Under the pieces are notes generated by a model. That model did not search any database and was not told where the DNA came from. It saw only the letters and a list, made by a program, of their open reading frames with translations. DNA of 64,000 nt from Cladosporium halotolerans (Eukaryota): positions 310,001 through 374,000 of the forward strand of contig NW_027191455.1 in NCBI RefSeq assembly GCF_011745625.1, given 5' to 3'. This document shows, in pieces, positions 21,633-58,605 of this stretch; position 1 is the first letter of the stretch, and each line of letters starts with the position of its first letter. Made by a program: the position numbers and the translations under genes.

Positions 21633-22050
21633 TTTCTTCCGGCTGATCTGATGAGGAACCGTGGGTGATATGGCCATAGACAGAAGTATTGTGCGGAATA
21701 GGAGGCTCTACAAAAGGTGATTCCCAATCATACACGAGACTCACATTCACCCTACAAGCCAGATAACTTAAACCTTTGACCAATGTTGCTTTGTCTTTGC
21801 TGAACTCCTCAAGCAGAATAAGCAGTGGGGTGCCTATCTTTGATGAAGACGTCTACCAGTCTGTGGGTGCCGATAGTCCCGGCATGCTACGTGCAAGACA
21901 GGGCAAGGCTCCGATGGACGCAACTAGTCGGGAACTTCCACGGCATGTAGAAAGCTGCACGATGGACGATATCGTGCATGCTCGGACCTGAGTAGATAGG
22001 CGAAAGCTGTACCTTGCCACTACTCAACGATGCGGTGGGAGTGCAGCAGG

Positions 22051-22061
22051 CAAGAGTGGGG
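22051..22061 (+). promoter_or_regulatory. CAAGAGTGGGG, candidate HxnR-binding site upstream of hxnX
   Basis: Exact 11-mer that also occurs at 32837 and, reverse-complemented, at 36589 and 39847. Contains the GHGGGG core. Confidence 0.6.
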
Positions 22062-22301
22062 GATAGGCGAGCAAGCTATGATTGGCTGGTTTTGACGGTC
22101 TCACAATTGCCAATAATGTAGTCGGCCGCTACAGACATACAGGTGCATGTGAGACAATGCATGGACTATTGAGAGACTGCAATACAAATCTGGAAGGCCG
22201 AAAGGAGCCTACTTGAAGATAGATCGACCATGATACGCTGCAATGTTGAGGCATGAAGACCCAAAGTTGTCTCAACGATGAAAATGACGTGTATTACGAG
22301 C

Positions 22302-23336
22302 CTACTTGAGCACAGCCGGCATCATGGCATCGGGAGGAGGCTTATTCTTTGACTTGAACTCATCTGCCATTTCTGCCATTGTCATCCATTCCACTCCTTC
22401 ATGCTTGTTGATGTATTCGATCAGTCTAGGACTCGTCAGTGCGGTCTGAGCTTGAGGTTACTTTAGCCCTCACATACCTCTCGTGCATAAGAAGAACGTG
22501 GGGTCTGCCTGAAACATCAGGATGACAAGTGATCGGAAAGATGCAGATCTTGCTGGGGTCCGGATCATCCGCAAGCTCACGGTAATAGTAATCGAAGTGG
22601 TCTCTCCAGATGTCCTCAACGTCGCGAGGGTTGACCCAACCGTGGCTGTTGGCACTGTTCTTCACAAACATCATTGGCGGAAGGTCGTCGATGTACCAAC
22701 TGCCAGGGATCTCGACCAGGCCAGTCTCCTTGCCTCGGACCAGTGGCTTCATCCAAGTCTCGGCTTTTTGAGTGTAGTCGATCTTTGTCCACGTGTCACC
22801 AGTCCTCAACCAATACATGTTGGCATCGTCATGAGACATGGAGTGATCATATTCGATGCCGTAGCTGAGCATAAGCTCAACGCCCTCGTGGCTGGTCTCC
22901 CACCATGGAGCTACACTGCCACGCGGTGGCTTGCCACAGAAGTCAGTCAGCAACTTGTGGGTCTTGTCAAGCACGTCACGCTGCTGCTCTAGTGTCATGT
23001 CTGACGGATTCTCGTGCGAATAGCCTGTAACACTATGGATCAGCAACCTTCTCCAAAAGCCAATTTGACACAGTTACCATGGAGTCCAATCTCGTGGCCA
23101 GCATCTCGTACCATAGCGCACTCTTCCGGAAACGTCTCCAATGTGTGCCCAGGGATGAACCAGGTGGCTTTGATGCTGTACTTATCAAAGAGCTTCAACA
23201 TTCGTCGAGTACCATGTGTGCCGGCCCAGAGGCCACGTGAGATATCGCTGGCCGAGTCTTCGCCACCGTAAGAGCCGAGCCATCCAGCAACGGCGTCGAT
23301 ATCAACGCCGTAAGCGCAGATGATTCTCTTTGGCAT
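22302..23336 (-). CDS. hxnM: Polysaccharide-deacetylase-fold amide hydrolase (cyclic imide ring opening), HxnM-like; 2 introns
   Basis: [38 protein letters not shown] and [16 protein letters not shown]. Last exon [13 protein letters not shown]...PAVLK* ends at 22302. Confidence 0.88.
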
Positions 23337-23759
23337 GATGATAGTTTGTGAATTCGCGTCTGGTGAATGGCAATACTATGCAAAGTAAGAGTGACCAATT
23401 AGCTTAACTGAGAGTCTTCTTGTAGCGTCCACCATGCCTCACTCGGTTGATATATGCTGGTCCAGAGGTACTTGATTGACGACCACCTCAAAAGTGGACG
23501 GGCGAATGCTGTCGCGCAGCGCACCGCCTCACGTACTGCAGCCAATCTGGAGCGCTTCGGATGGCCCACTCAACAGCGAGCCACTTAACGGACACAGCTA
23601 TTGTCTTCATGTCAGCTCTGGCTATCGCTGTACTGCAGGATATTTAGGCACGCAACAAAACAGCAAGTCTTCTGAATTCTCATTCTGGTGCCTTGCGAGG
23701 CTTCAAAATCGAGACAGCAATGAATGACTGAGCAATGCAAAGTGGCCGAATCAATTATC

Positions 23760-25630
23760 TCAAGCCTTACGCAAGACTTGCTCTACCTGTGTTGCGGCTC
23801 CGAGTATCTTTTCCTCATCGAAGCGCCGCCCGACAAGTTGTAACCCAACGTGATGGCCATCCATTGCTTCCGCGTCATACCTTTGCCAATTCCACGCATC
23901 GTTTGGGTTTCGAGGCTCGTATCCCTGCAGGGCAATATCATGCTTTGAAGCTTTGCCGGCAGGAAAGCTAAGCGCCGTATAGTCGAGTATGTTGAAGACC
24001 TTGGTGTACCCGACCCAGCGGCAGCTCCTGTGCGTCATTGCAGTATGCGGCATTGTCGGCATAAGAACGACGTCGACACAGCGGCCGGTGGGTGATCTTT
24101 TCTCGTTCCACATCGTGTGATACGCCTGTTGGGCAGCTATCTTCCTTTTGTTCAGCTGCCAATATTCGTAGACTGAGATCGGAGGAGCGCGATCAATCAG
24201 CGACTGGACGTGCGGGAGAAACGGCTCTCCGCCCTCAGTCACAGCTTGACGGATGTCTTCGCCGCCATCCGCAGTGTAGTACTCGTCCTATCATCGTCAG
24301 CGTCACCCCACATACATTTCACTTAAGATGTTTCCACTTAAAGTTCTTACCATGATGGAAATGCAGTCAGCGTGCAACGAGGCGTCCCACTCAACTATTT
24401 CATGTCCAGCGTCGATCAACTTTTCTACCGTCTCTTTGAGCACTCTCTCGACAGGTGGATGAACTTTGACAACTCCATCATCTAGTAGCACGCCAATGAC
24501 TAGCGGTCGATGCGAAAACGTTTGGAATTCGTTCTCTTTCCATGGCAATGGAGGTAGTTGAGGATCCGACTTCCATGGTTCTGATTCAATGACTGCCTTC
24601 GTGACCAGCGAAAGCGAGCTTAACGAGCGAGCCATGGGACCAACCGCGGACGGAACATGCTGCTGTCCCTCGGTCGACACCGCTACACCTTGATATGACA
24701 TGCGGCCGCTCTTTGTTGAATGTCAGCCAATTGACATACACGTTGGACAAAGGGGCGGGAAAACCTACGCTTGGTTTCAGACCCCAGAGCCCGTTCATAT
24801 GGCTCGGGATTCTTATAGATCCACCAATATCAGTACCCCAACCGATCAAAGAACCATTCAGCGCCAACAATGCGCCTTCCCCGCCGGATGAGCCACCTGA
24901 CGTAAATTTGGGATTGAGCGGGTGAGTTGTCAATCCCCAGAGAGGGTTCTCGCACTCGCACCACTGACTTATTAGATCAGTGAAATTTCTCGAGGTCAGA
25001 GGAAACATACCATGATACTCTGTGGGAGATTGGTCTTTGCGATGATGACCGCACCGAGCTGCCTGAGAACACTGACAAGTAGTGCATCGGAAGTCGCTGG
25101 AGCGAACGCTCGACCCACGTAGCCAAGAGAGGAATCGAATCCCTCCACGTCGAATTGGTCTTTCAGTGATACTGGAACGCCATGGAGAGGACCAACGAGC
25201 GCACCATATTCCATCATGGAAGCGTCAAGGCTTTTTGCTTGCTTCATGGCGTCTTCAAAGCAGATTTCCGTGAGGCAGTTCGTCTCAAGTATAGTTCAGC
25301 CGTATGTCCTCACTGCTGTATCAATAAACATACCTTGTTGTGTGCATCACATGCTCTGAGAGTCAGTTAGAGAGGCCCATTGTGGTCCAGTGAAGATTTG
25401 GCGTACTTATCTATGTAGGCCGTGATGACTTCTTGAACGGAAGCTTGGCCGCTCTGATACAGCTTCGTGAGTGGCTCGATGTCGGCAAGCTCTGTGAAAT
25501 TGATCACGGGCCTTCGAGTCTTGCTTAAGTCTCGAGGCTTCTTGATATGCTCTTCCCTGATGGCTCGTTTCGCTGCTACGACCTCTGTCCATGGCCTTTG
25601 AAGCGATGGAGAATCTTCGGCCACTGTCAT
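23760..25630 (-). CDS. hxnN: Amidase-signature family amidase, HxnN-like; multi-intron
   Basis: [20 protein letters not shown] and [11 protein letters not shown] (Lys-cisSer-Ser triad), with C-terminal [13 protein letters not shown]. Confidence 0.85.
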
Positions 25631-26327
25631 ATTGTGTGGTCTTGCTTTCCCTTGACAACGAACTTCGATATATCACAGGCTCATATGTACCGCTCCTTCA
25701 AATTCAATGACTAGGGCGCAGGTACTTTTAAGGCCCTCCAATTGAAGATTGTAGCTGGACGGGCGGCGGCTACGGTGTCGACTGCCTCGGCGGCCAAAGG
25801 TGGGGACTTGCTGGAATGCAATACCCGTCGGAGCGACCTTATCAACGACGCCCCACGCAGGTAACATTTCCGTCGCTCGGGTTGCGATCACGATCTTCGC
25901 TGGTCAGTCAATATCCATGCTCCACACGATCATTTAGAGCACGGCGAATGTCTGTCGAGACTGTACATAATAGATGCGACACCTTCGACTTGGTCTCGTG
26001 ACATGTCAACGATGAGCCACAATATCATAATGAGAGATCATTGAGAGATCATTGCGTATTCGTACAGTCACGTCTGATCTTTACCAAATCGAAAGGTCTG
26101 GTGTACAAATATCGGAAAGTAAATGAAGGCAGGACAAGGACGCCGCGTGTACTTCATGTGGGAGCAGGGGCCATCTTGGCGACTTCAGCGGAAATCAAGA
26201 GTCCCGAACTGTCCCATGGTGTATATATCAGTAGTGTAACTAAATTGTAAACCCTCTACGGGCTATCCACACGCGTCGTCTTTGCGATTTTGATGATACT
26301 CTCAAATGGGCGATAGCCGCTTCCCTT

Positions 26328-27970
26328 CTAGATGGCAGCGTGCCCAGCGGTCTCGAAGGGCAGACCAAACGCGACAGCCCCGACAGCGATCCACATAGCA
26401 GCACTGACATAGATTGGCACCACCGAGAACCCAGTATAGGTTCCGATGAGAGACGCGACGAGCGAACCGAGGCGAAGGTTCGTAGCTGCCTGACCGGTAC
26501 CAAGACCACGATGCGGACCTGGAAAAGACTCTGGCGTGATGGCGTACATGATAGCGTACATGAAATTAGCCAGCAGGCTGCTGACGCAGTTGAACGCCAA
26601 GTCCATTGATTGCGAGCCTGCCGCAGAGTAGCCATACAGGAAGGCCCCCGTTATGATTGCCGAACCACCCATACACCACCGTCGACCAAGCCTAGTCCTC
26701 ACGAGGAGCGAGGCCGAGATTGGACCACAAACGCCGACCGCCGAGACGATGCAGTAGTTCCTGTAGGTGTCGTCGAAAGATCCGGAGGGAAATCGTTGAG
26801 CCAAGTATGTCGGCAGGAAATTGAAGAAGAGTGGATATGCGATACCGATGGTTAGCCAGATCAACCAGAGAATACCTGTCTGTTGGCCGAGTTTGCGAGT
26901 CGAAAAGAGAGCCGCGTAGTTCATGGGCTTGAAGTCGCGCACATTATCTCTCAATATCTGAGCCTTGGATAGCTTCTTCGTCTGGCCTTCTTCAACATTC
27001 GTCACAAGGCCCAGCTGTGCGTCCACCTCCTGTAGCATTGCAAGCGTCAAGGGCTCAGGCACCTCGTTGCATCTGGCAATGTAGTTGACAGCCTCGACTG
27101 CTTGCTCGTCTCGGCCCTTTGCAAGCAAGAATCGGGGCGACTCTGGCATCTTGAAGAAGAAGATTCGGATCACCGCAAATGCGAGAGCTATGCCACCCAG
27201 TGTGATCATCGTGTATCTCCAGCCCATATTGTCGGTCTTTTGGCAAATCTCGGCGTCGGAAGCGCAGCTAAAGTTTGCCAGGAATACCCAGGCTATCAGA
27301 GACACGATCACCTGGCCGAGATTCCACCAAGCAGACAATGCAGTAACCAGATACTGGTGCGATCCCGGTATGAACTCGAGGAAGATCATAGAGTCTACTG
27401 GGACGTTCCCGCCCGCGGCGGTGCCAATGATCGACCAGAAGAAACAGAATGCTCCAAAGTTATCGAGCCCTGCAACAGCGGCACCGAAAACTGCACCGAT
27501 CAGGATTGTCGCATTGAAGGCCATTTTGCGTCCGGTGAAGTCGCATGACATTCCCCAAAACGAAGCTCCAAAAATCATGCCGGCATAGTATGCGATCGAA
27601 CTAATGGTAACCCGGCTGACGTCGGTGAACTCCAAGGCGACTGCGGGCTGGATCGCGCTTATGCTTTGAGACCAGCTTCTCATTGTGTCAGTGCGACGTT
27701 TTGACAAGACTTGGTCAAGGAGCCTCACAAATTGTCCGTGATCCAGCCGAAACCAGTCACCACAAAGAGCGCCCACTGGTAGCGACCCATTCCAATCTCG
27801 GTCATACACCCAGCCACGAGCTCAGACTTCATACGATATGACTCCGAGATCGAGCCTCCAAAGAAGTCTTTATTTGCCTGAGCATCGGTTGACTCAACGA
27901 TGCCGACGGCATGGTCAGAATCAGCCTCGACGCTGTATTCGTTTACCTTCTCAGCCGCGGCAAGAGCCAT
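26328..27970 (-). CDS. hxnZ: MFS transporter (SV2/sugar-transporter-like), HxnZ-like; 1 intron
   Basis: MGRYQWALFVVTGFGW, SCDFTGRK, GGNVPVD, MPESPRFL and TPESFP, with multiple hydrophobic helices. Intron at about 27677-27727. Confidence 0.75.
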
Positions 27971-28611
27971 GAGGAAAACTTGGTGTCAAACGTTGACGAC
28001 GAATTCAAGGCACAAATTGGGGTTTTACCACCCTGATCTTCGAGACTCGAATATATCTATGTAATGGCTAATCAAGCCCATCCTCTATGCCGTGGCCAAT
28101 CATCTTCATGACTCTGCCAGAATGCTGAGAGTGGGGGAAAGCCTGAAAGCCGGGGGTCCTATCACGTTCATTGCGCCACAATCGGCGTGACAGATACGCA
28201 CCTGCTGTCTATCTCGACAGCAAGACCCATGTATGTCAGGCCTTTAGAAAGTGGCTAGAGCAGCGCGCAATGCTTTCCGCCAAGATACCAGTATTCACGG
28301 GCCCACCATTGCACCCTCTACTGATGTGGTCAGTCAATTCGAATGACGTGAGCAGAGGGCTTCCTGAGTGGACGCTTTCGCGATGCATGGACATCCACAT
28401 TGATTGCTGCGGAAGCTGCCTAGTTCGATTGTGACACCAATCACTTCGACGGATTAGGGAAAATGGGAGGCTCAACCAATGAGGACTTAGTCAAACATTG
28501 TTACCTTTGTTGCATCTTTAGTCTTGTGAGAACATCGATGATCGCTTTGGTACGACTTCGATACGTTCATTGGGAGAGTTTGAGCATGGCTAAATTTAAA
28601 TAATGACTCTT

Positions 28612-30718
28612 TCAAGCTTCCAGAAATCCAGCGAAATAGTCATCGATCCAAATCGCAGCTTCCTGGCCATTACCTTGGAGACCATGGTCCCACCGCTTCA
28701 GTGTCCCAACGTACCCATCTGGTCGAACAATTACTACTGCAACTTCGGAAACGTCCAGACCACCCAGCCAAGCTTGACTACAGCTTCGTACGCCGCCCAT
28801 CGCATTGGGGATATCGTCCAAGTAGAAAGCCCAACTACTGCTCTGGAGAAGAGGGTGTAGGTCCGCGATCTCCACAGTTGATTTCGGAGCTGTCGTGACG
28901 ACCGCAGGTGTGTACAGCCGCGAGACAGCAGTGTATCTTTGTGGCTGCATGTAGATGGCAGAATCTGGGATCGGCGTATTGAGTCTTCCATAGCTTGTCT
29001 CTGCAAGTGCCGACGCACGGTAGAGGCAAGACTGTTCATTGCCTCCAATGTAGTCAGAGACATTGTTGAGAAAAGTGGAAGCGGCGTGAACATCAGGCAC
29101 GAAGAAGAAAACCCTGAATTGACCAAGCATCGGTATGTCCAGCTGGAGGTCGAGAGGGTTGGCGTCGATGTATCTGGTGACTCGCGCAGGCGTGAGAAGG
29201 CATCCCGCTTTGAGCTGGCCTTTAGGAGTGGTTTCGGGCTGGTTGAGAACGTTGGCGTTGTACTTGACACCCGCCCCGGATATGAAGCTGATGTTATTCG
29301 AGAAGTTTTCGGCTAACGCTTTGTCGTCGCCAGCTGCGAAAGCATTCGCGTGTTCGAAATCAAAATTGACCAAATCCTGGGCAATCTTCCTACGCTCATG
29401 CTCATAAGTCGCGAGTAGCGACGGCTTAGCCAGGCCACGAAGGGCCAGATTGAGCTTCCAAGAGAGATTGAAAGTATCATGCATGCTCGTATTCATGCCC
29501 TGTGCGGCTTTTGGCGAGTGTGTGTGACAAGCCTGTGTAGTGTCAGCGCTCCAGGTAAGGCCCACTGCATGGTACATGGTGTCTTACATCTCCTGCCAGG
29601 AACACTCGGTTCGAGTCGTCTGAGAAGCCGCTTGCCACCCTCTGTCCAACTTTGTACACGGAGAACCACTCTGCAGAGAATGAGCGAGTGTACCTCCCAA
29701 GCATGCGAGGAATAACTCACCAATGCTGTCCCATTCTAGAGTATAAGGTGCAATGATCTCTCGAGCCCGACGGATCACAAATTCCTGCTTCTCTTGTTCG
29801 GAGGTGAATGAGGCTTCGAAGCCGGAGCTCAATTCGATGTAGAGTCGGGTCATGTTTCGTTCGCGAGGGATCAACAGGATCGTGCCTTTGGTCTCAGAAT
29901 GGATAACCACCTTTGACCAAAGATCCGGGAAATCAGTCTTGATGACACCATCCAACACTCCCCAGGGTGCTTTACTTGGCTCGCCTTCCATGGCAAGGTT
30001 GGGAATTGCTTTTCGGACTTTCGAATGCGCCCCATCGCAACCGACCAAATACTTCGTCTTCAGCAAAGTTGTTTGGCCCGACTTTGGACTGGTGTAAGAG
30101 ACCACAAGTGGATCAATGGCAGTCTCGCTGCTTGCATAGGTGACGAATGGGGAGCTGCGGTCGACCGCAACATTTCTCTCGGCCATGTCTGTCAACAATA
30201 CATCTTCCATCATGCCTTGGTGGACTAGCAGGATGTAGGGATCCTTGACATTGACACTCTCAGGATAATGTATTTCACGTCCAGTCCGGTGGAGCGACGC
30301 ATCGCTTGAAGAATTCTGACACCCGCGTCAGCGAGTACACTTAACAGTGGATTAGGTAGAAAGCCACACCCAGAAACAAATGTCATAGACTTTGACACCA
30401 TTGCGCAGAAGATCATCTCCGAGGTTTAACTGTCGCAATGTTTCTATCGACTTGGGTTGCAAGCCATCTGCCCTTCCAGTAGCAGTTTTGTCGGGTCTAT
30501 CGTCCAAGATTCTGCTTCTAATGCCGTAACGTGCCAGTGTGCATCTGAGCCCGTCGAGTCAGTCTATGCCGCATCTCTAATTACGATCGAACTTCTACCT
30601 ACGCGAGCATCAAACCTGCTGGGCCGGCGCCCGCAATGACGACGTCTTCGATATCAACGTTTCGGAACACATCGTTTCCAGCAATTGTAGAGTCGTCACC
30701 AAGGGCCATAGGTGCCAT
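28612..30718 (-). CDS. hxnV: Phenol 2-monooxygenase-family FAD monooxygenase, HxnV-like; ~4 introns
   Basis: ATG 30718 reads ...[12 protein letters not shown], then [44 protein letters not shown] and C-terminal VIVRPDGYV. The first three exons splice in frame by hand. Confidence 0.88.
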
Positions 30719-31210
30719 CCTGATGAGAGTGAATTTATTCAATGTGTTATTGTCGCCTCTCTCGCATAGATGAGATGACCTGACAATTAATGCATATTCT
30801 CCAAAGACCCGTACGTAGGTCGACCTACCGTGATCCCTCAGTCAACGATCCCTAGGCAGCTTGCAGTCCACGTTTAGCCACATGATCCCCCACTTCTGCG
30901 GGTTGGCCGGGTCTTACGCAGACATGAGCGGGTCCACTCCAGTCACTCGCAGGAAGGTTGTTTGTCAGATCAAGGGCAACGCGATAAGACAGAGAAGTCA
31001 TCCGCCGAGCGGCTTGTGCTGCCGCCCCAGGCTTGGCACCACCACGGCATGTATCTCTCCACAACATGGGATCGCGGCCATCGTTGCCGACGGGACAAAC
31101 GGAGCGACTCAATAGTGACAAATGTATAGCTGCTGCGAGCGTTTGATGGCTGAAATTACTGCAGTATTGCCGTTGCTCTTCGAACACTCCTTCAACCCTT
31201 AATGTTGCCC

Positions 31211-31240
31211 CGCGATAGCCTGCGATAGCCCGCGATAGCG
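31211..31240 (+). repeat. Three tandem 10-bp units (YGCGATAGCS), each with an HGATAR GATA-factor site
   Basis: Reads cgcgatagcc tgcgatagcc cgcgatagcg, about 500 bp upstream of the hxnV-like ATG. Confidence 0.8.
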
Positions 31241-31373
31241 TTGTACAGCATCATGGCACACACACATCCGGAGTGACACTGTTCGATACATGCGTATCTC
31301 CCAATTCTCTACCTCAATTTGCGTTCCCGTGACTAAAGATACCATCTTGCCTTGCGTTTGCTGCACACGAAGA

Positions 31374-32708
31374 TCACCAGGCGAGATTGGGCCTTTCAGC
31401 TGCACAACTTTCGACCTGAGAGCAGAACGCTTCGTCTTCGGCCCCTTTAGAAGATCCGACAGATGGCTTGGACTTTGCAGGCCAAATCTGTCTTCCTTCT
31501 TGCTGTTCAAGCTTCCAGTGCACCGACAAGGCCTCCCTCACACGTTGCTGGAAGAAGATATGGCCCTGAGGGTCAAATGTCAGTCACTGTGTGCGTAGTG
31601 TCCTGGTTGCATACGTACACTTTCTTTCCGCGGATGCAGTTGCCCTGATGTGAAGACGCCTGCCTCCAGGTTCACTTGGCTTCCCTCACACAAGGCTTTG
31701 TCTTCATCAAGGACCTGTTTGTAAAACTCGCAGATGTTGGCGAACTCCTGGTCACTCGCATTCTTATGGCGGTACACTTCGTTCTCAATCTTGCTTCTAG
31801 TTGCTGAGAGAGGTACCATGCGCTGAATGTAGAAGAAGTTATCCCTGTCATAGGTCAGCCGGCGGTGACGAAACTTGCGGATGCGTTGCAGTCGATGGCT
31901 TACGTGCAAGTCACAGAAGTCGTCGGATAGCAGAAGGTGATCGCTCTTCGAAATTGAGCATCACTCGACTCTTTGTTGAAAATGTAATGCCGCATCTGAG
32001 ATCCGGTGGGCTCAACGCGGTACTTGTTAAGATCCGACACGCCTGCAATCAAGGGTGTGAGGTGGCACAGTGATAGCACTCATTGTAGTTGTCGATCAAA
32101 GACTTCCAGTTCGCCGACACGTTCATGGACCAGCAGTGATCCAGCTTAAATTCTTCTTCAAACTTGAATTGGCTCATCATTTCCTCATCGACCCCTTCGT
32201 TGCTTTTCTCCCAGCTGATGTCAGGCTCACCGGCTTGTAGGTTCGCCCAGATGAAGCCAAATTTGTCGGTATGGATGTTGACAGGAAAGAGGCTTTGCTG
32301 TGACTTGTCAAATCCCTCCACAGTATCGAAACGTGGAGCCTTCGCAAGCTTTCCGTTAAGACCATAACTCCAGCCGTGGTATTTGCAACTGAGAATGGTG
32401 GCAGTACCACTTTCAGATTGCACAACCGGGAACGCTCGGTGGCGGCAAACATTATGGAACCCGTTGATCTTGCCCTGGCGGTCCCTAACAAGGAAGAAGG
32501 AGTAACCGGCTATGTTGAACTGCTGGTAGTCTCCGGCTTGCGAAAATCGAAGAGTGTGCGTGAGAAGTAGCCAGTCGCGTGAAAAGATGGCCCGGCGTTC
32601 CAATTCATACAGACTTTCTGCCTTGTACCAAGATGCGGGCAAGTTTCGAGGTATGTCATCATTGGCCGGGCAGTCCGAGTTTTGGCGGGTGAAGTAGTGC
32701 CACAACAT
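31374..32708 (-). CDS. Rieske [2Fe-2S] non-heme iron oxygenase alpha subunit (choline monooxygenase-like); 2 introns and an apparent 1-nt frameshift near 32053
   Basis: Rieske motif NVCRHRA...SCKYHGWSY and mononuclear Fe motif [20 protein letters not shown]. After the frameshift it continues [15 protein letters not shown]...[13 protein letters not shown]...GQLHP...RPNLAW*, stop at 31374. Confidence 0.85.
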
Positions 32709-32836
32709 GATGTCGTCAGGGTAAGTAGCTTAGCGATCAGTCTTACAATTTCGGGGAGTCAATGGCTAAGAAGTCTTTGCTTGGATAGCGCGAAGCCCTC
32801 CTTCTCTCAACATCGGTCGGTCAATACTAATACCTA

Positions 32837-32847
32837 CAAGAGTGGGG
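32837..32847 (+). promoter_or_regulatory. CAAGAGTGGGG, candidate HxnR-binding site upstream of the Rieske gene
   Basis: Exact copy of the cluster 11-mer about 130 bp upstream of the Rieske ATG, with AGATAG (GATA) at about 32860. Confidence 0.6.
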
Positions 32848-33338
32848 GGATTAGCGGGTAGATAGGCGTGAGCGGCTCGAGGAAGCCCTAGTTGCCGGTG
32901 ATAGCACTTGGCCTGTCAGACAAACTGCGAGGAATCTTGAGTCCATGACATTGTCTTGAATCCCGGTGAGTCCAATCGTTTAAGTTTTCTGCGCCACCTC
33001 GAGGGCTTTCTCGAAGGCAGGATCTCGATGCCAAATGACGAACTGCGCTAATGTCACCGTAGATTTCCAAGGGGCGGTTAATTATGCTCGAGGTGCGCAT
33101 AATTTGCGGATAATTGGTCGCTTCTTAAAATATTGACCAATGCAGCCAACTGCGTTCAAACGTCTTCAGCACAGTTCGTGTCGTTGGCACAAGGAACAGC
33201 ATTGCGAGAGGTTGCTGGAGATCAGCAGAAGAGCAGTTTGTTTTCCGAAAGCTTCCGTTCCGTCTTGTGCCGACTCACGCCTTTCTCCTTGCGCGACATG
33301 CGGCATTGTGATACAATCCGACCCATCTCATCAATTGG

Positions 33339-34204
33339 CTACCATTTTGTCACTCCGCCATCTACTAGGATATCCTGGCCCGTCATGTATTTGCTCGCGT
33401 CTGAGGCAAGGAATATACAGGCTCCACGAATGTCGTCTGGGTCCGCCACTGCTCCATTCATGATTTCGTCCTTCCAGTTTTCTAACAGTTGTGGAAATGG
33501 CGCTTTGGCATGTCAGTAAAAATGGACACGCAGTATCAGGACATTCTTACGCACCTGTCATTTCCGTTCGGACATAGCCGGGAGAGATGCTGTTGACTCT
33601 TATCCCGTGTTGCGCCAACTCCACTGCCATTGGTGGACACATCGACTTCACAGCACCCTTGGTGCCGCAGTAAGCACTGGACATTTGGCCTCGAACGGCT
33701 CTGGAAGCCGCAATGGATGCTACCATAACAATCGAGCCTTTGCTGGTCCTGTTGGCGATCATTGCTTTGGCAGCCAGTTGCGCCGTGAAGAATGCGCCTT
33801 TCACATTGACAGAATTCAGCTGATCGAATGCAGTTTCATCAGTCTCAGTGAAAGCCACGTTACGATTCGTTCCTGCGCAGACGACGCATATGTCCAAGGC
33901 TCCATTGGTCACCTTTAGAAAGGACGCGAAGGCCTCTCTGAGACTTGCCACCGAGCTCACATCCGCTTTGAAATCCCAAGTCTTGACAGAGTGTTTGGTG
34001 CTGATTAGGTGAAAGTCCGGAGAAGGATCTATGAGATCAAGTACGACGATGTCCGCCCCAGCTTCCGCGAGGCCCTCTGCAAAGGAGAGACCGCATCCTC
34101 TTGCGCCGCCTGTCACTACGGCGGTGCGGCCCTTGAGTGAGAACTATCGATCTTGTTAGCACAAAGCATCGACATACTGTGACATTTCGTACCCTTGCTA
34201 ACAT
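33339..34204 (-). CDS. hxnW: Short-chain dehydrogenase/reductase (polyol dehydrogenase-like), HxnW-like; 2 introns
   Basis: MLAR|FSLKGRTAVVTGGARGCG (TGxxxGxG), catalytic YCGTK, IRVNSISPGY and C-terminal YMTGQDILVDGG. The start exon is tentative. Confidence 0.85.
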
Positions 34205-34559
34205 TGAGAGAACGTCGTTCCTGCTGATGAACCTACGATCTAGATTGTTGCGAGGTCCCCTTTGCTCAAATAGTCTCTTTCAAAGGACTGATGGCTATTC
34301 AAGCCATAGGTGGACGCCCCCCACCTGCTACCCACTTCTCGCCACATCTTGCTCTGACGGCCCATGGTATCGGTAGACACCTGAGGGTACCTGAAACTAC
34401 GTGCGACTCCTATACAGGTGCCACACATGTGGTCAGACACGCAATTTGCAATGGTACGCATGTTGATTTCGTCCTCTCTTGGTGACTCCTTGCCGTCGTT
34501 GCAATCGTGAAACCCCCATCTACTGACCTGCAGTGCTGTATCCAGCCAAGCGGTGTGTC

Positions 34560-36181
34560 TCAGACGAAATAACGCCAGTCCGGTGACTTCTCGCCCGCTT
34601 GGAGAAGATCTGTATCCACTTCTCCCGCCTTGAGAATGCGTCCTTGCTCGCGGTTCCTACGGTTATTCTCTCTGCGCATCCAAAAACTCATTCCAAGGAC
34701 CGCTGTAATCGATACCACGTTACACAAGGCCGTCGCCGCCAAAGTAGGCCAGTATGAGGGTGCATACTCTGTTCGGAATGTCGCTCCCGAGATGATACCG
34801 CCGAGGTTACCCAGACCAACCAGGAATCCAGTCCTCGCGGCACGGCTGGATTCATCAAGATCATTGTTATTGTGCCTAAACACCGTCAGCGCATGTTCCG
34901 TCGCGCACGATCAAGATCGCCTACCAGGAATGCACCAGCACTGAAGGAATGTAGGCGCCGGAGGCCATGAGGAAGCAAGAGAAATATGCAACGCCTTGAT
35001 GCTCGAGAGCGTCGATGCTGGCGAGTATGACCATGCCGATGAGAGAAATTGTAAGGGCACCCACAATATGGAAGCCGCGCTCTCGGAACTTGTCTGATGA
35101 TTTAGCGAAGCAGAGCAGGACAACGAAGCCGACGCAGTTGGGCGCAACAGTACAGAGATTAGTCTTGACCGTCGAATATCCAAGACGCTGTACTGTCGCC
35201 TTGTCAGCTCGAGACCTCTTAGTTCATTCCACGAGTAGCTCACCAATCTGGGGAAGAAAATTAGACGTGGTGCTGAAGGCCACTGGATACGTAAAACAAA
35301 TGATCGCCCAGTGTGCAAAATGCCAGCTCTTCCAGCTGGCAAAAGCATCCCTCATGCTGAGCTTTGCATTGATCTTGTTGGAGCTGTCTCTCAGCATTCG
35401 AGCTCTCGCCGCAGCCTTCTCCCGCTCATCCAGGAACCACGCAGTTTCCGGCCGTGCCGGCAGGAAGAAGTATGCGATTACGCCGACAATGACGGTCGCG
35501 GCACCTTCGATGAGAAACAACCACTGCCATCCATGAATGCCTGGATAGTTGATCTGGAAGACTCCAAAGCTAATGAGCCCGCTGAACGCTGCCGCCAACA
35601 GCGCACTTCCGAAGAACATGGCCAGCCTGAAACTGAGTTCGCCTCGGGTGTAGAAAAGCGTCAGGTAAAATATGACACTGCAGTAGAATCCGGCCTCGAA
35701 ACTAGCCAGTAGGAGGCGCAGTGGGAGCATCCCCGCGAAGCTCGTGGCGGCAGCCTGGATAGTAGCCATCGATCCCCAACCAACAATGAGCACGGGAAGC
35801 ATTGTTCTGGCCGAAAATCGCTTCGTTAACAACGTCAAAGGAAGGTCCATGACGCCAAACGGCACGCTGAAGAGTAGGATAAGCAAGGAGTATTGGTTGC
35901 CGGTGAAGTTCATGTCTTTGTCCATGCCATCTGTTTTGGCATTCCCGATATTACTCTGTTTTGATGTTAGCACCGACATGTGTAAGAGTAAGTAAGACTT
36001 CGCGTACGCGATCGACTGCGCTAAAAAAGTAGCACAGCGACAAAAACGGCAGCAAATAATAGTCAAGCTTTCTCACGTATGAGCGTTCTGCGTCTTCATC
36101 GATCCCAAGCACTACGTTGCCAACTGCGACTTCTAGTGCTTTCCCCCCGGGCTGAGTCGGCGGATCCGATTTGTAGTCCAT
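34560..36181 (-). CDS. hxnP: MFS anion:cation symporter (Tna1/Dal5 nicotinate permease family), HxnP-like; ~3 introns
   Basis: VRKLDYYLLPFL, DR|SNIGNAKTDGM, LFYTRGELSFR, GWQWLFLIEGAAT and C-terminal DWRYFV. Confidence 0.85.
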
Positions 36182-36588
36182 TGTGGCGAAATCTCTGGGC
36201 AGTGAGAAGATGCTTTTCCCAGTCCGAGACGCAACGAATAAATATACAGTGATCGTTCTCATTTCAAGCTATACTACTGCAAATCATTTATATGCCTATC
36301 GCACCATGCAATTCATGCGCGCATTTTGATATGCTGCACATTTTATCTATTCGCGACTTTTTAGCTTCAGCCACTTGGTGACAGCAGTGGGGTAGATATC
36401 CAATTGCGGTCTTTGGCAGTGTATTCCCATGCGAGGAGTATGTTGTTGCGTGATATGTGCCTGTACGAGTCATTGTCATTGAAGATAGGGCAAAGATAGG
36501 GCTCCGCCTTGGGTGGCCGCTGCCGTTGTTCTCCGCAATTCACCATGCAACGGCCGGCGGCACGCTCAGTCGGTGTTCCCCCCCATCT

Positions 36589-36599
36589 CCCCACTCTTG
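36589..36599 (-). promoter_or_regulatory. CCCCACTCTTG (reverse of CAAGAGTGGGG) in the hxnP/hxnY divergent promoter
   Basis: Exact reverse-complement copy. A second core (AGCAGTGGGG) lies at 36383-36392. Confidence 0.6.
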
Positions 36600-36794
36600 A
36601 GCTACATGTTGAGGGACCCTGGGGCATGCCGGGATCGCCGGCGAGATACGTCCGGTCGGAAGAATGTTGCGACATGATTGGATATATAGAAGGATAATGT
36701 GTTAAGACACAGACGACCCTTTACAGCACATACCTTGAAGCATTCGTCTGAGACTCAACACCCCTTGCATCTGCTCGCCAGACATCTGTTCAAC

Positions 36795-38119
36795 ATGACA
36801 GCCACTGTTCAAGCGCCTCCGATTCTCGACTTTTCCGGTATGTTGCCGCACAGTCCTCCATGCGGACTCTTGTTGACGTCTCTAGTGTTCTACGGCAACG
36901 ATGATGCCGCCAAAACCAAGCTTGTCGACGATGTGCGGACCTGCTGCCTCCACAATGGTAAGAGACATTTCTGAATGCTTCTGCCTGACTCGCGAGCTGA
37001 TATTGGTCGGGCAGGCTTTTTCCAAATCGTTGGTCATCGAGTGCCAGCTGAACTTCAGGAAAATGTTCTCGACAGCCTGAAGTCTTTCTTCTCTTTGCCA
37101 CTAACCGAAAAAGAAAAGGTCCACAAAGGTCAGATTGCTTCTTTGCTCAGATCGGCTGCTGCCTAAAACTCACTCCTTTTTAGATAACACAACCTGGAAC
37201 CGAGGCTATGAGAACATCGGATCTCAGATTCTAGAAGCCGGTGCCAACCCTGACCAGAAAGAAGGGTTCTACGTTGGGGAAGAGATCACCAAGGATCACC
37301 CGTATTTCCTGGGCAAGAAGCTCAACTCAGGACCTAACCAGTGGCCTCAGGATTTCCCGAATGCTGAGAAGTTCCGGAAATCTTCAATGGCCTACTACAC
37401 TGAAATGCACGCGTTGGCTAGAGATATCCTGTCTGTCATCGCGCAGACTCTCTACCTGGACGCTAATTACTTTGACACCTTCACGAGCGGCGCTGTTGCA
37501 ACCCTTCGCTACCTTCATTATCCTCCACAGCCGAAGGACTCGGATGAAAAGCTCTCCCGCGGCATTGGAGCTCACACCGACTTCGGTTCTGTGACCCTTC
37601 TTATGCAAGACGATGTTGATGGGCTGCAGGTGTGGGAGAAGACTACCCAGGAGTGGCTTGATGTGAGTGATATTCTCAATGACGATTCTGTAAAAAAGCG
37701 CTCACATCCGATAGGTCATGCCCATTAAGGGTGCTTACGTGGTCAATCTTGGGAACATGTTTATGCGATGGTAAGCGGTCTGCAAAGGACCATAGTCAAT
37801 AATGCAAGCTGACAAAGCAAGGTCCAACGATCGCTACATCAGCAACTTGCACAGAGTCATCAACAAGAGTGGGAAAGAACGTTACTCTGTTCCCTTCTTT
37901 TACAGCGGCAACCCTGACTACCAGATCGACTGTCTTCCCAACAGCCGTGAGGAAGGGGTTCCTGCTAAGTATCCTCCAGTCACTGTCATGGATTGCGTCG
38001 GAGCGAGTTATCGGGACTCGTACGGCAAGGCCACGGCCTTTAAATTAGCCGCGGCCGCTACACAAGCCACAGAGTTGCCTAAGGGGCTCTCGATGTCTGC
38101 ACAGCCAATTCTTGCATGA
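36795..38119 (+). CDS. hxnY: 2-oxoglutarate/Fe(II) dioxygenase (IPNS/DIOX-like), HxnY-like; multi-intron
   Basis: PPILDFS, GFFQIVGH, NRGYE, LRYLHYPPQ, GIGAHTDFG (HxD), SNLHRV and RYSVPFF. Confidence 0.87.
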
Positions 38120-38376: not shown

Positions 38377-39666
38377 CTATAGCCGTGCAATGCCAAATCC
38401 ATCCCTCCTTCGAAGGCCCAAAAACTTCTTGTCGATGCCTCGGATGTTGGGGATCCCTGCTAATGCCATGGTCCTAGATAGTTCGCGCTCCAGAATGTTG
38501 GCCACCAGCTCAACGCCTATCTGCCCATCGTAAGCCAGGCCCCACAGAACGGGTCTTCCGACAAGGACGAGATCTGCACCCAAAGCGATCGCCTTGAAGA
38601 CATCACTGCCGTGCCTGACGCCTCCGTCGAAAAGGATCGGTATCTGCCCTTTGGTTGCGGCCGCAATGGATGGGAGTGCTTCAATCGTTGCCGGCGCAGA
38701 GTCAAGCTGTCTGCCTCCGTGGTTCGATACAACAATGGCGTCGACTCCATGTTTGACCGCCAACTCGGCGTCTTCCTCAGTCATCACGCCTTTGAGAATG
38801 ATCTTCATAGAAGTCGCACTTCGTAGCCAACTGATGGTCTCGGTCCACGTCAGCGAGGAGCTGTGAATACTACCTCCTGCATCTCGCACCACCTGCTTCG
38901 CTTGAGCTGCTGTTGGCGCATCTAATAGTTGCCGCTCTTGACTTGGTCTGTAGTTATCGGCTTTGGTCTTCTCTGAACCTTTGTAATTAGCAAGATGAAG
39001 ATTCGAGGGCAGGACGAGAGGCGTCTTTCGTTCGTTGATACGGTTTCCGAGGAGCGGCGTGTCAACAGTGATCACCAGAGCTGTATATCCAGCATCTACC
39101 ACCTGTCAGCAAAATGACGAGAAGTTAGCTCGGATTGAACTGTCTCACTTGCTGCTCTCTTAATCAAGGGAGTGCTAAGAGCTGAATTTTCGGTCACATA
39201 GAGCTGGAACCACCGCTCGGGTCCATCGGGTGTATTTGGCATCAACGATGCAATGTCTTCGAGAGATGTTGTCGACTGCGACGAAATCGTCATATTGACC
39301 CCGAGTCTTTGCGCGGCCCGTGCAACGCTCTCTTCGCCTTGCGGGTGAGCGAGCTTCTGCATTGCAGAGGGAGCAAAAGCGATTGGAAAAGGGTATTCCA
39401 CGCTGAACAAACGTGTGGAAGTATCAACTTTTGATACGTCAACCATCACTCTCGGCCGGATGAGGATGCTTTAAAAGGTATAAGTCCATGCTCGTTTGTA
39501 TTGCGTGAAGGCGCACCAACCGGTCAAAAGCCGCTCGGTTCCGAATCAGACATTTCTGATCGTCCGCTCCGGATGCATAGTAGTCGTAGACATTTTTCGG
39601 TAACTTTTGTCTCGCGAGGGATTCCAGTTCATCGATCGTGACAGGGTTCACGATCGTCTCCGCCAT
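38377..39666 (-). CDS. FMN-dependent (S)-2-hydroxy-acid oxidase (glycolate/long-chain hydroxy-acid oxidase family), C-terminal PTS1 ARL; 2 introns
   Basis: YDYYASGADD, ILIRPRVMVDV, APSAMQKLAH, ITVDTPLLGNR, ILKGV, VSNHGGRQLD, DGGVRHGSDV and GRPVLWGL. No cytochrome b5 domain. Exons splice in frame. Confidence 0.9.
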
Positions 39667-39846
39667 ATCGTCCAGTTCTTGTCATCCGATGCCTATTCAC
39701 TCAATTGACGATTGCAGCATTCATTACAAAATCCAATAAGTATCGACACTAGAACAATGCCATTGTGGGTCAACCATTCTACAACCGCTAGGGTAGCGCT
39801 TGTTTACGTGGCCTGTCGTCGCCATCCCCCACCCGTCCGCCTGACT

Positions 39847-39857
39847 CCCCACTCTTG
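39847..39857 (-). promoter_or_regulatory. CCCCACTCTTG in the divergent promoter of the hydroxy-acid oxidase and SnoaL-like genes
   Basis: Exact reverse-complement copy of the cluster 11-mer, with a second CCCCAC core at 39827-39832. Confidence 0.6.
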
Positions 39858-40045
39858 ACATTTGCGAACCGATACGGCCGCTCCATAACCCACCAGCCTG
39901 CGGAATTGAGCAGCGAGTGGAGGAGACAACAGGGATGGACAGGTTCAATCACTGAATCGATATGTAAGTCGAAGCTTTGTGTCGATGCAACCCAGATCGA
40001 AGACCACCCTCGCCGCCAGAGCAGATGCCGACCAATTAGTATTCC

Positions 40046-40513
40046 TTGGCCACTTATATCAACCAGTGTGTGCTCACGCTATATGTCAGACTTTCAGCCA
40101 TACTGATCAACGACTTAGTGGGCGATCAAGAAGCGATCACCAGTCTTTTACATTCCTATGGCGACGTCCTTTCTTCACGCTCTCTCGCAGATGTTCTATC
40201 AATCTACACATCAGATGGCGTTTTCATGGCACCTGGATACCAGCCTTCAGTCGGTACAGATGCATTGAAGGCGTCATACAAACGCATCTTCTCAACCATC
40301 AAGCTGGATATTGAGTTCAGCATCAACGAAATAGTGGTGATGGATGGTGTATCATGGGCGTTTGCGGGAACCACAGCAGAAGGCACTAAGCATTGGCTGC
40401 AGAAGGAAACCGATGAGAGCCATCACAACCAAGAGATATTTGTTTGTCAAAAGGTTGATGGAGACTGGAAGATTGCGAGATACTGCTTTTCCAGTATGAA
40501 ACCATTGACTTAG
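40046..40513 (+). CDS. SnoaL/NTF2-like (DUF4440-type) small protein; true start uncertain, probably a small upstream exon
   Basis: DQEAITSLLHSY...IYTSDGVFMAPG..SVGTDALKASYKRIF...NQEIFVCQKVDGDWKIARYCFSS follows the ketosteroid-isomerase-like pattern. The ORF-track start is a TTG. Confidence 0.75.
   Translation: MATYINQCVLTLYVRLSAILINDLVGDQEAITSLLHSYGDVLSSRSLADVLSIYTSDGVFMAPGYQPSVGTDALKASYKRIFSTIKLDIEFSINEIVVMDGVSWAFAGTTAEGTKHWLQKETDESHHNQEIFVCQKVDGDWKIARYCFSSMKPLT

Positions 40514-58572: not shown

Positions 58573-58605
<33 letters not shown>

Follow-up and report, generated by a model that had tools for sequence, protein, structure and literature searches.

Here, we describe a gene next to the nicotinate (hxn) cluster of Cladosporium halotolerans which encodes an FMN enzyme of the glycolate-oxidase/HAO1 type without cytochrome b5 and with a PTS1-type ending. 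The analysis covered a stretch of 64 kb, referred to as the window, in which the gene occupies positions 38377-39666 of the minus strand. As a whole, the best explanation is that of a cluster-member oxidase acting on the (S)-2-hydroxy acid at the end of the pathway, and to this we give about half of our confidence. The two parts of this explanation differ in strength. Membership of the gene in the nicotinate cluster appears much better founded, because it is linked to the nicotinate genes in two fungal orders, falls into a clade made up of linked copies only, and shares a conserved promoter motif with the cluster; the substrate, 2-hydroxyglutarate or 2-hydroxyglutaramate, is what we infer.

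The window harbors hxnT, hxnR, hxnX, hxnM, hxnN, hxnZ, hxnV, hxnW, hxnP and hxnY together with a gene for a Rieske oxygenase (Table 1), and hxnS was not found in the hxn cluster of these 64 kb. The preliminary description of this DNA had named an intact FMN hydroxy-acid oxidase gene as the neighbor of hxnY, with a PTS1 tripeptide at the end of its product and no cytochrome b5 domain, and all four points are borne out by the results given below. The neighboring gene, convergent (tail-to-tail) with the oxidase gene, encodes a 2OG-Fe(II) dioxygenase, and one of its exons aligns ungapped, at 61% identity over 160 aa, with the dioxygenase half of an Aspergillus granulosus gene model in which HxnY and HxnZ are fused. 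Four GT..AG joints of hxnY were found in RNA-like contigs. For the SnoaL-like protein encoded on the other side of the oxidase gene, the nearest solved structure is 3d9r.

Table 1. Positions of the oxidase gene, its neighbors and the shared promoter motif in the window.
Feature	Position	Strand	Remarks
Remainder of hxn cluster (hxnT, hxnR, hxnX, hxnM, hxnN, hxnZ, hxnV, Rieske oxygenase, hxnW, hxnP)	14939..36268		Pfam; hxnZ by naming
Further motif copies, rest of hxn cluster	16616-16626, 22052-22062, 28128-28136, 32838-32848	-, +, +, +	
Identical 11-mer AAGAGTGGGGA, hxnP/hxnY two-way promoter	36588..36598	-	Exact match
hxnY, 2OG-Fe(II) dioxygenase gene	36700..38119, start approximate	+	Pfam DIOX_N and 2OG-FeII_Oxy
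Exon 3 and stop, with catalytic Lys (ILKGV), His/Arg pair (SNHGGRQLD), FMN-phosphate loop (FDGGVR) and C-terminal ARL (38380-38388)	38377..39095	-	FMN_dh profile 135-348 of 350, E 7e-78; HAO1 alignment
Intron 2, 53 nt, GTGAGA...GCTAAC...TAG	39096..39148	-	Product alignment ungapped over junction
Exon 2, with SSQSTTS segment and FQLY motif	39149..39468	-	FMN_dh profile 33-132 of 350, E 5e-29; solved-structure matches
Intron 1, 52 nt, GTTGGT...AAG	39469..39520	-	Product alignment ungapped over junction
Exon 1, ATG at 39666-39664	39521..39666	-	Gene model; FMN_dh profile 1-31 of 350, E 7e-6; kept in related loci
Spacer between oxidase gene and SnoaL-like gene, probably a two-way promoter	39667..40225		559 nt
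Second GTGGGG core, inside GGGTGGGGGAT	39827..39832	-	Aligns with second half of the tandem element of relatives
AAGAGTGGGGA, copy of cluster-wide motif CAAGAGTGGG(G), with one GTGGGG core	39846..39856	-	Equivalent element kept in 9 orthologous loci
SnoaL/NTF2-like gene, divergent from oxidase gene	40040..40513, open frame, start not fixed	+	Pfam; synteny

The oxidase gene is intact and consists of three exons, the 394-aa product of which ends in GFGIARL. Spliced in this way, the product aligns gap-free over both junctions with annotated full-length orthologues, and the three-exon layout is seen again in related contigs. The use of the introns is predicted from this homology. Among the four presumed RNA runs, X17 and X18 contain spliced contigs on hxnY and leave the oxidase gene uncovered, which is no evidence either way, while X7 and X16 continue through the introns and look like DNA.

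Exon by exon, the gene matches nearly the complete profile of the Pfam family FMN_dh (PF01070). Among proteins of solved structure, human HAO1 (182 bits) and spinach glycolate oxidase (171 bits) match best, with flavocytochrome b2 at 97 bits. The motifs YDYY, FQLY, TVDTP, GNR, ILKGV and SNHGGRQLD supply the Tyr, Tyr, Asp, Arg, Lys, His and Arg set for catalysis and carboxylate binding, residue roles which we take from the glycolate oxidase literature, and the alignment with HAO1 retains TVDTPxLGNR, KG, SNHGxRQLD and DGGVR. A predicted model of the 64%-identical orthologue from Neodothiora, used in place of the window protein, has a pLDDT of 88.4 and superimposes on 1gox and HAO1 with TM values of 0.92-0.94 (target-normalised), E-values of 1e-38 to 4e-40 and 39-43% identity, so that the oxidase is predicted to form a (beta/alpha)8 barrel of the glycolate oxidase type. 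No cytochrome b5 domain was found: the FMN_dh profile begins at residue 18 of exon 1, and none of the three open frames of at least 90 aa in the 560-nt upstream spacer belongs to a Pfam family. The terminal ARL has its counterparts in all 38 full-length homologues, which end in ARL, SKL, AKL, SRL, SKI, TKL or SRI. Peroxisomal location and an activity as oxidase rather than dehydrogenase are suggested by these features. No PTS1 was seen at the ends of the final long open frames of hxnX, hxnM, hxnN, hxnV and others; as open frames rather than gene models, these carry no weight for or against a PTS1 on the other cluster enzymes.

With spinach glycolate oxidase (1gox) and HAO1, the enzyme has in common the fold, as judged from the orthologue model, the catalytic Lys/His/Arg/Tyr set, the lack of b5 and the peroxisomal C-terminal tripeptide. 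Unlike glycolate oxidase, it carries a Gln, within the SSQSTTS segment, at the position of Trp108 according to the solved-structure matches; this Trp is the residue by means of which glycolate oxidase fits glycolate. In addition, the lid loop exceeds that of HAO1 by about 14 residues, and the genomic context is a nicotinate cluster, whereas the context of glycolate oxidase and HAO1 is photorespiration or glyoxylate metabolism.

The linkage of the gene to hxn genes is conserved. Orthologues with 74-82% identity were found on 14 metagenome contigs, and in all 11 of these which extend that far the next gene past the stop codon is a gene of the hxn cluster. Which gene this is varies, with hxnV in nine contigs, hxnW in one and the Rieske gene in one, as compared with hxnY in the window. 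In Neodothiora populina, the orthologue AAFC00_005027 is followed in numbering by hxnZ (AAFC00_005028), both being listed with a longest contig of 1,981,150 bp, and for Aureobasidium pullulans, A. melanogenum and A. subglaciale the GenBank numbers of orthologue and hxnZ are consecutive in many assemblies (e.g. THY73477/THY73476, KEQ66405/KEQ66406 and KAI5247668/KAI5247667). The linkage spans two orders of Dothideomycetes despite the differing internal order of their clusters.

Such linkage has to be weighed against the alternative that a general-purpose peroxisomal 2-hydroxy-acid oxidase, for glycolate, lactate or fatty 2-hydroxy acids, lies in a conserved flank and plays no role in nicotinate use. 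Members of the family occur widely among Pezizomycotina, with PTS1 endings everywhere, and by locus tag the homologues from Oleoguttula, Penicillium manginii and A. wentii lie far from hxnZ. Furthermore, the oxidase gene could be part of a conserved flank and not of the cluster, because the SnoaL, SMP and orf41253 genes are likewise syntenic among close relatives and the SnoaL gene also remains close by in Neodothiora and Aureobasidium. A. nidulans has no such cluster gene and still uses nicotinate, and the available text on the FMN dehydrogenase gene pfdB states that this gene is unrelated to and not needed for nicotinate catabolism, since A. nidulans lacks it (Bokor et al. 2021, PMC8478523). 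On the other hand, a mere flank position does not readily account for a linkage that outlasts the reshuffling within the cluster and extends over two orders, nor does a general-purpose function sit well with the Gln in place of the glycolate-fitting Trp discussed above.

Phylogeny speaks against this alternative as well. One clade (SH-aLRT 98) unites the window protein, two further Cladosporium proteins, Neodothiora_005027 and five Aureobasidium-type proteins; all three unlinked homologues named above fall outside it, and its sister is an unlinked paralogue from the same Neodothiora genome, Neodothiora_002377 (SH-aLRT 90). Seven residues are specific for the linked clade (A79, F80, H90, Y193, E209, L213 and L331), three of them in the lid loop and two just ahead of APSAMQ, a conserved segment in exon 2. 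Among the seven there is no Arg or Lys that could hold a distal carboxylate, and a Glu is newly introduced, which is a point against the substrate proposed above. Another metagenome homologue with 55% identity, L026, was considered as a Pfd-type sequence and ruled out as such, being a further paralogue without b5 that ends in ARL.

Further evidence comes from the promoter, which contains the top motif of the cluster. When k-mers were counted without prior bias in 13 non-coding segments of the cluster (9,041 nt), CAAGAGTGGG ranked first, being present in five of the segments, the oxidase promoter included, and in six copies in the whole window. In the form CAAGAGTGGG(G) it is common to the oxidase promoter and the non-coding segments of hxnR, hxnX/M, the Rieske gene and hxnP/Y. 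The 9-mer AGAGTGGGG occurs five times against 0.54 expected, a count reached in none of 100 shuffles, and all five copies lie in non-coding cluster DNA. Of the 11-mer AAGAGTGGGGA there are exactly two copies in the 64 kb, one in the oxidase promoter and one in the hxnP/hxnY promoter, and this sharing exceeds chance. Further right in the window, the motif is absent. Among relatives, a tandem AAGAGTGGG element located 170-220 nt upstream of the ATG is kept in all nine aligned orthologous loci, and in L003 and L012 the motif is also found upstream of the Rieske, hxnW and hxnP/hxnY genes. The frequency of the motif 8-mer in 204 kb of unrelated loci is at chance level (6 versus 6.2 expected).

The preliminary description had pointed to two GHGGGG cores upstream of the gene, including the exact 11-mer. 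Both cores are present as GTGGGG on the oxidase strand, one at 39827 (166 nt before the ATG) and one at 39847 (186 nt), and the 11-mer is non-random, but the cores alone are no more than chance, because the 131 GHGGGG sites of the window correspond to an expectation of about 1.1 for 559 nt (P of at least two, ~0.3). In addition, the strict core is missing from the oxidase promoter in eight of nine related loci, and strict GHGGGG was rejected as too weak a shared signal. GHGGGG is a computer-predicted HxnR site only, and GTGGGG also matches the CreA consensus SYGGRG. The candidate for the HxnR site is probably CAAGAGTGGG(G), and co-regulation of the oxidase gene with the cluster is suggested by its presence, although in a two-way promoter the motif may act on the SnoaL-like gene rather than on the oxidase gene. 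For HGATAR (GATA/AreA), the oxidase spacer of the window has one site versus two to six in other cluster spacers, and a CTTATC beside the motif is kept in nine related loci and absent in the window. With linkage, clade structure and promoter element considered together, we judge it unlikely that the gene is a general-purpose bystander.

If it is a cluster member, the oxidase may have a place in the known pathway. According to the available text of Bokor 2022, HxnM yields (S)-alpha-hydroxyglutaramate, which HxnN then converts to alpha-hydroxyglutarate, with any further step undescribed. The (S) configuration of the published intermediate fits the FMN_dh family, which oxidises (S)-2-hydroxy acids, and of the published intermediates only the open-chain (S)-2-hydroxy acids suit the chemistry of this family. 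We propose that the gene is an accessory hxn member of Dothideomycetes which arose by duplication of a gene for a peroxisomal hydroxy-acid oxidase and which would be switched on with the cluster via CAAGAGTGGG(G). Its product would act as a peroxisomal FMN-dependent (S)-2-hydroxy-acid oxidase that passes electrons to O2 and so produces H2O2 within the peroxisome. Most likely, it would form 2-oxoglutarate from (S)-2-hydroxyglutarate or, acting one step earlier, 2-oxoglutaramate from (S)-2-hydroxyglutaramate, and either oxidation would hand the ring carbon to central metabolism. That the oxidase regenerates the co-substrate of HxnY is speculation.

The first of these reactions is catalyzed by E. 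coli LhgO/YgaF and human L2HGDH, which are FAD-dependent proteins of the DAO family with a fold unrelated to that of the oxidase (available text of Rembeza and Engqvist 2021). In that study of 24 FMN_dh proteins with six substrates, the accessible text gives oxidation of L-2-hydroxyglutarate only for FAD-dependent DAO-family proteins, and in the literature we found no FMN_dh-family enzyme acting on 2-hydroxyglutarate or 2-hydroxyglutaramate. If the oxidase has 2-hydroxyglutarate activity, it would represent a second, independent solution beside LhgO and L2HGDH.

A cluster member could also act on another substrate, either a ring intermediate with an alpha-carboxylate, in the manner of FUB9, or a product of a lineage-specific side branch that also involves the Rieske and SnoaL-like genes, for instance one degrading pyridine carboxylates with methyl or other substituents. 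The fusaric acid cluster protein FUB9 belongs to the same fungal FMN_dh family without b5, and several homologues of the oxidase are labelled 'Oxidase FUB9' in databases. FUB9 is a secondary-metabolite FMN oxidase said to oxidise a nitrogen heterocycle in fusaric acid synthesis, and it is not known to be linked to hxn genes. The Rieske and SnoaL-like genes are outside the A. nidulans regulon and have a share in the motif or the promoter, the best matches of the Rieske protein are two enzymes with betaine substrates, carnitine monooxygenase and stachydrine demethylase, and the clade-specific residues in the lid loop and before APSAMQ would also be compatible with a different substrate. Nevertheless, we consider this reading improbable, because the oxidase has the carboxylate-binding Arg/Tyr set of its family while the ring intermediates after HxnX are without carboxylate in the available text of Bokor 2022, which leaves the open-chain acids.

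A precedent for the proposed cluster-member oxidase exists in Eurotiales. The accessible text of Bokor et al. 2021 (PMC8478523) describes pfdB as a gene for a putative peroxisomal FMN dehydrogenase which lies within hxn clusters in Aspergillus section Flavi, in Penicillium and in Talaromyces. PfdB likewise has an FMN_dh domain (PF01070) and PTS1, and pfdB, located beside hxnZ, originated by duplication of a non-cluster paralogue followed by entry into the hxn cluster, as the oxidase gene probably did. However, PfdB contains cytochrome b5, is encoded by five exons and is typically shorter than the ~500-aa PfdA, whereas the oxidase has 394 aa, three exons and no b5; it therefore lies outside the Pfd family as defined by b5 plus FMN_dh and five exons. 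The distinction between the Dothideomycete clade of the oxidase and PfdB of Eurotiales follows the published descriptions of Pfd proteins and not a common tree. Since the clusters of Eurotiales hold this different FMN dehydrogenase with cytochrome b5, the recruitment of the FMN enzyme type into clusters of Eurotiales and Dothideomycetes looks convergent. The main text of that paper, as far as available, does not discuss Aureobasidium, Cladosporium or Capnodiales, and it brings up Dothideomycetes only for a transfer of hxnM.

From this comparison a broader and more tentative reading can be derived, which we put forward with some doubt. A peroxisomal FMN step, from (S)-2-hydroxyglutarate or its amide to the 2-oxo acid, may have been missed in the eukaryotic nicotinate pathway, one for which A. 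nidulans would have no dedicated gene and which was recruited independently, as pfdB in Eurotiales and as a glycolate-oxidase-type enzyme in Dothideomycetes. If this is true, the protein would be the first L-2-hydroxyglutarate oxidase of the FMN_dh family, and these fungi could use the carbon of nicotinate and not only its nitrogen.

The published fungal nicotinate pathway ends at alpha-hydroxyglutarate and accounts for the use of nitrogen but not for the fate of the carbon skeleton. The gene described here represents a second, unrelated-looking recruitment of this FMN enzyme class into hxn clusters, beside the pfdB that was set aside, and this recurrence, together with the peroxisomal signal, the linkage and the shared motif, makes the final step likely enough for a direct test. 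Moreover, CAAGAGTGGG provides a concrete candidate for the binding site of HxnR, for which the existing site is computer-predicted only. A positive result would connect the end of the pathway with the TCA cycle, reveal a new substrate class of FMN_dh enzymes with relevance to 2-hydroxyglutarate biology and sensing, and give a clear example of convergent cluster assembly.

All long open frames were scanned against Pfam, which gave the gene order of the cluster. After Rif1 come genes for an hxnT-like old yellow enzyme, an hxnR-like fungal transcription factor, an hxnX-like FAD monooxygenase, an hxnM-like deacetylase-fold protein, an hxnN-like amidase, an MFS transporter orthologous to hxnZ, and an hxnV-like phenol hydroxylase. 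The order continues with a Rieske ring-hydroxylating oxygenase, an hxnW-like short-chain dehydrogenase, a second MFS transporter (hxnP), hxnY, the oxidase gene convergent with hxnY, a divergent SnoaL/NTF2-like gene, a seed maturation protein (SMP) domain gene and further genes. The nicotinate hydroxylase gene hxnS was not detected by Pfam scan in the window, including positions 8849-14938 left of and up to hxnT. hxnY was identified by two Pfam domains and by a gap-free match, 61% identical, to the dioxygenase portion of an Aspergillus granulosus gene model in which HxnY and HxnZ are fused, and contigs of two sequencing runs presumed to be RNA contain four GT..AG splice joints inside it. In its 5' part (36837-36888), contigs of the runs X17 and X18 skip 50 nt with GT..TG ends and carry two extra letters between the sides, in contrast to the four clean GT..AG joints, which come further on in the gene; the oddity may reflect a strain difference or an assembly artefact. 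The window ends (1-8000 and 54000-64000) have a G+C content of 58-67% versus about 51% in mid-window, many reading frames there being open over long stretches, with few Pfam matches (prefoldin/DUF3835, Ric8, Voldacs).

Positions of genes, exons and motif sites in the window and in related metagenome contigs
Feature	Position	Strand	Remark
Rif1	8849-14083		long open frame left of hxnT
Rieske oxygenase gene	31583-32729	-	inside cluster, between hxnV and hxnW
Rieske gene, contig L002	5611-6866
Rieske gene, contig L003	14277-15540
Rieske gene, contig L004	4396-5655
Rieske gene, contig L012	13930-15141
Oxidase gene, three exons	39666-39521, 39468-39149, 39095-38377	-	intact model
Oxidase paralogue, contig L026	9400-10760
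SnoaL/NTF2-like gene	40040-40513	+	divergent from oxidase gene; spacer and motif in common
SMP-domain gene and small open frame	40675-41609	-	small frame 41253-41609; beside SnoaL-like gene
CAAGAGTGGG(G) sites	16616-16626, 22052-22062, 28128-28136, 32838-32848, 36588-36598, 39846-39856

The preliminary description had claimed an intact FMN hydroxy-acid oxidase gene adjoining hxnY, whose product ends in ARL and lacks a cytochrome b5 domain, and all of this was borne out. The exons, separated by two short introns with canonical fungal ends and a GCTAAC branch site, cover positions 1-31, 33-132 and 135-348 of the 350 positions of Pfam FMN_dh (PF01070) in a profile search. The spliced product of 394 residues, with the C-terminus GFGIARL, aligns gap-free at both exon junctions with annotated full-length orthologues, and the exon layout is the same in related contigs. 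No cytochrome b5 domain was found, the FMN_dh profile starting at residue 18 and the open frames of the upstream spacer of about 560 nt matching no Pfam family. Among solved proteins, human HAO1 (182 bits) and spinach glycolate oxidase (171 bits) are closest to exon 3, with flavocytochrome b2 at 97 bits. The catalytic Asp/Arg (TVDTPxLGNR), Lys (KG) and His/Arg (SNHGxRQLD) and the FMN-phosphate loop are all kept in the alignment with HAO1, and YDYY and FQLY occur in exons 1 and 2. Structure prediction with the 64%-identical Neodothiora orthologue in place of the window oxidase gave a model with pLDDT 88.4 and TM scores of 0.92-0.94 against spinach glycolate oxidase (1gox) and HAO1, at 39-43% identity. 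Judged from alignment ranges, the oxidase has Gln where glycolate oxidase has Trp108; the family consensus is likewise Gln. A 55%-identical paralogue without a b5 domain, ending in ARL, has Tyr at this position; it lies on L026, a contig from the same metagenome as several hxn-linked orthologues, and neither the 10 kb upstream nor the 2 kb downstream of it contains an hxn gene. All 38 full-length homologues from the first homologue search end in ARL, SKL, AKL, SRL, SKI, TKL or SRI, and judged from these termini the whole family looks peroxisomal. The window does not stem from Aspergillus nidulans: the best named relatives are proteins of Cladosporium spp. (79-80% identity), then of Neodothiora and Aureobasidium (66-68%).

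Three independent lines, namely synteny, phylogeny and promoter signals, make it likely that the oxidase gene belongs to the hxn cluster. Gene order in Dothideomycetes is otherwise heavily scrambled (mesosynteny). Window genes were placed by tblastn on 14 metagenome contigs carrying orthologues at 74-82% identity. In each of the 11 contigs extending past the oxidase stop codon, the gene beyond it is an hxn-cluster gene (hxnV in nine, hxnW in one, the Rieske gene in one), the corresponding neighbour in the window being hxnY. Since this neighbour differs between contigs, the cluster has been reshuffled internally with the oxidase gene kept at its edge. None of the homologues at or below 56% identity (L015-L040) has an hxn gene beside it. 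In Neodothiora populina the oxidase orthologue AAFC00_005027 is followed by hxnZ, AAFC00_005028. Oxidase and hxnZ also bear consecutive GenBank protein numbers in many assemblies of Aureobasidium pullulans, A. melanogenum and A. subglaciale, adjacency being deduced here from submission numbering; in a few Aureobasidium assemblies the numbers lie 2 to 22 apart, and in A. melanogenum CBS 110374 the numbered partner is a fused hxnY-hxnZ gene model.

The SnoaL-like gene lies on the other side of the oxidase gene in all ten contigs reaching far enough, most of which also carry the SMP gene and the small open frame. In Neodothiora it is AAFC00_005025, two locus tags from the oxidase, and in Aureobasidium it also stays close, matched by assembly records to oxidase or hxnZ proteins. 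Because it stays close too, the synteny test cannot separate the oxidase from its divergent partner. The SnoaL-like protein shares 70-78% identity with Aureobasidium proteins and, among solved structures, is nearest to the ketosteroid-isomerase-like 3d9r; its gene may count as the cluster's second accessory gene. The SMP gene and the small frame hold their place beside it in the related contigs reaching there (small frame 9/10); the open frame 42289-44268 has no match in related contigs, and synteny stops just past the SMP gene and small frame.

In a tree built with IQ-TREE (quick search, SH-aLRT support only) from 39 full-length members of the family, the window oxidase groups with two Cladosporium proteins, Neodothiora AAFC00_005027 and five Aureobasidium-type proteins in one clade (SH-aLRT 98). 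Its sister (support 90) is AAFC00_002377, another Neodothiora gene, from a different place in that genome. With locus tags far from hxnZ, the homologues of Oleoguttula, Penicillium manginii and Aspergillus wentii fall outside the clade. The picture suggested by the tree is that the oxidase gene was duplicated and one copy was then attached to the hxn cluster.

To our knowledge, the HxnR binding site has never been determined experimentally. GHGGGG is a computer-predicted HxnR site only, according to the main text of Bokor et al. 2021 (PMC8478523). Two such cores had been reported upstream of the oxidase gene; both are present, although with about 1.1 expected in the spacer they are not significant alone. 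Also reported was the exact 11-mer AAGAGTGGGGA. It occurs exactly twice in the window, once in this spacer between the oxidase and SnoaL-like genes and once in the promoter of hxnP and hxnY. AGAGTGGGG has five copies in the window versus 0.54 expected, all in non-coding DNA of the cluster, and none of 100 shuffles reached five. When all 8-, 9- and 10-mers in 13 non-coding segments of the cluster were counted without bias, the cluster motif came first at every length, CAAGAGTGGG being found in five of the segments and six times in the whole 64 kb. Alignment of the oxidase/SnoaL spacer from the window and nine related loci (L013, with the layout of L012, was omitted) revealed a tandem AAGAGTGGG[C/T]GGAAGAGTGG 170-220 nt before the oxidase ATG, kept amid otherwise diverged sequence in the nine loci. 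AAGAGTGGGG also precedes the Rieske, hxnW and hxnP/hxnY genes in L003 and L012, and the 8-mer was at chance level (6 found, 6.2 expected) across 204 kb of unrelated loci. Three points weigh against the promoter argument: the strict GHGGGG core is absent from the oxidase promoter in eight of nine relatives, GTGGGG also matches the CreA consensus, and the shared promoter may act for the SnoaL-like gene. In the relatives' oxidase promoters the last G of CAAGAGTGGG(G) is C or T. On sequence grounds, CAAGAGTGGG(G), which exceeds the predicted GHGGGG in length, can be put forward as a concrete candidate HxnR site.

The cluster motif also precedes the Rieske gene, which is kept in five related contigs; the word "Rieske" is absent from the main text of Bokor et al. 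2021 (PMC8478523). Nearest among solved proteins are two betaine enzymes, carnitine monooxygenase CntA (129 bits) and stachydrine demethylase (98 bits). One idea, by analogy, is that the Rieske enzyme might feed the pathway by demethylating trigonelline (N-methylnicotinate).

A related enzyme is known from other hxn clusters. The main text of Bokor et al. 2021 (PMC8478523) describes pfdB, a putative peroxisomal FMN-dependent dehydrogenase gene between hxnZ and hxnM in Aspergillus section Flavi, Penicillium and Talaromyces, which arose by duplication of the ubiquitous pfdA in the progenitor of the Penicillia and whose function is unknown. Since A. nidulans does without it, the authors judged it dispensable for nicotinate use, and this main text does not mention the Dothideomycete oxidase gene. 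A literature search on pfdB and nicotinate returned nothing relevant beyond that paper and its preprint. As described there, Pfd proteins have a cytochrome b5 domain and five-exon genes, PfdA being about 500 residues long and PfdB typically shorter. The window oxidase, in contrast, is of the b5-less glycolate-oxidase/HAO type and belongs to a Dothideomycete clade. Therefore this enzyme class appears to have been recruited twice to the nicotinate cluster, judged from domain architecture, gene structure and the published pfdB origin, with Pfd compared by description rather than in a joint tree.

FMN_dh enzymes convert (S)-2-hydroxy acids to 2-oxo acids. In the pathway as presented in the text of Bokor 2022, where HxnX is peroxisomal, ring opening by HxnM gives (S)-alpha-hydroxyglutaramate, an amide that HxnN hydrolyses to alpha-hydroxyglutarate; no later step is given there, in agreement with the preliminary description. 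Of the published intermediates, only these two open-chain acids fit FMN_dh chemistry, so that oxidation of 2-hydroxyglutarate or its amide is favoured for the oxidase. The enzyme would oxidize (S)-2-hydroxyglutarate to 2-oxoglutarate, or the amide to 2-oxoglutaramate, in the peroxisome with O2 as acceptor, a proposed reaction that is plausible and stereochemically apt. Several points speak against it. Where 24 FMN_dh proteins were screened and L-2-hydroxyglutarate was among the substrates, the text gives this activity only for FAD-dependent DAO-family enzymes (Rembeza and Engqvist 2021), and our literature search found no FMN_dh enzyme using 2-hydroxyglutarate or its amide. Among the seven residues marking the linked clade (A79, F80, H90, Y193, E209, L213, L331) no basic residue is gained; three lie in the lid loop, changes compatible with altered specificity that point to no particular substrate. 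The full statement, comprising oxidase gene, cluster membership and 2-hydroxy-acid reaction, seems to us evenly balanced between holding and failing.

What is new here is that hxn clusters have a second kind of peroxisomal FMN oxidoreductase linked to them. The finding matters because two independent recruitments, as they appear to be, would open a missing last step of nicotinate breakdown in eukaryotes to direct testing.
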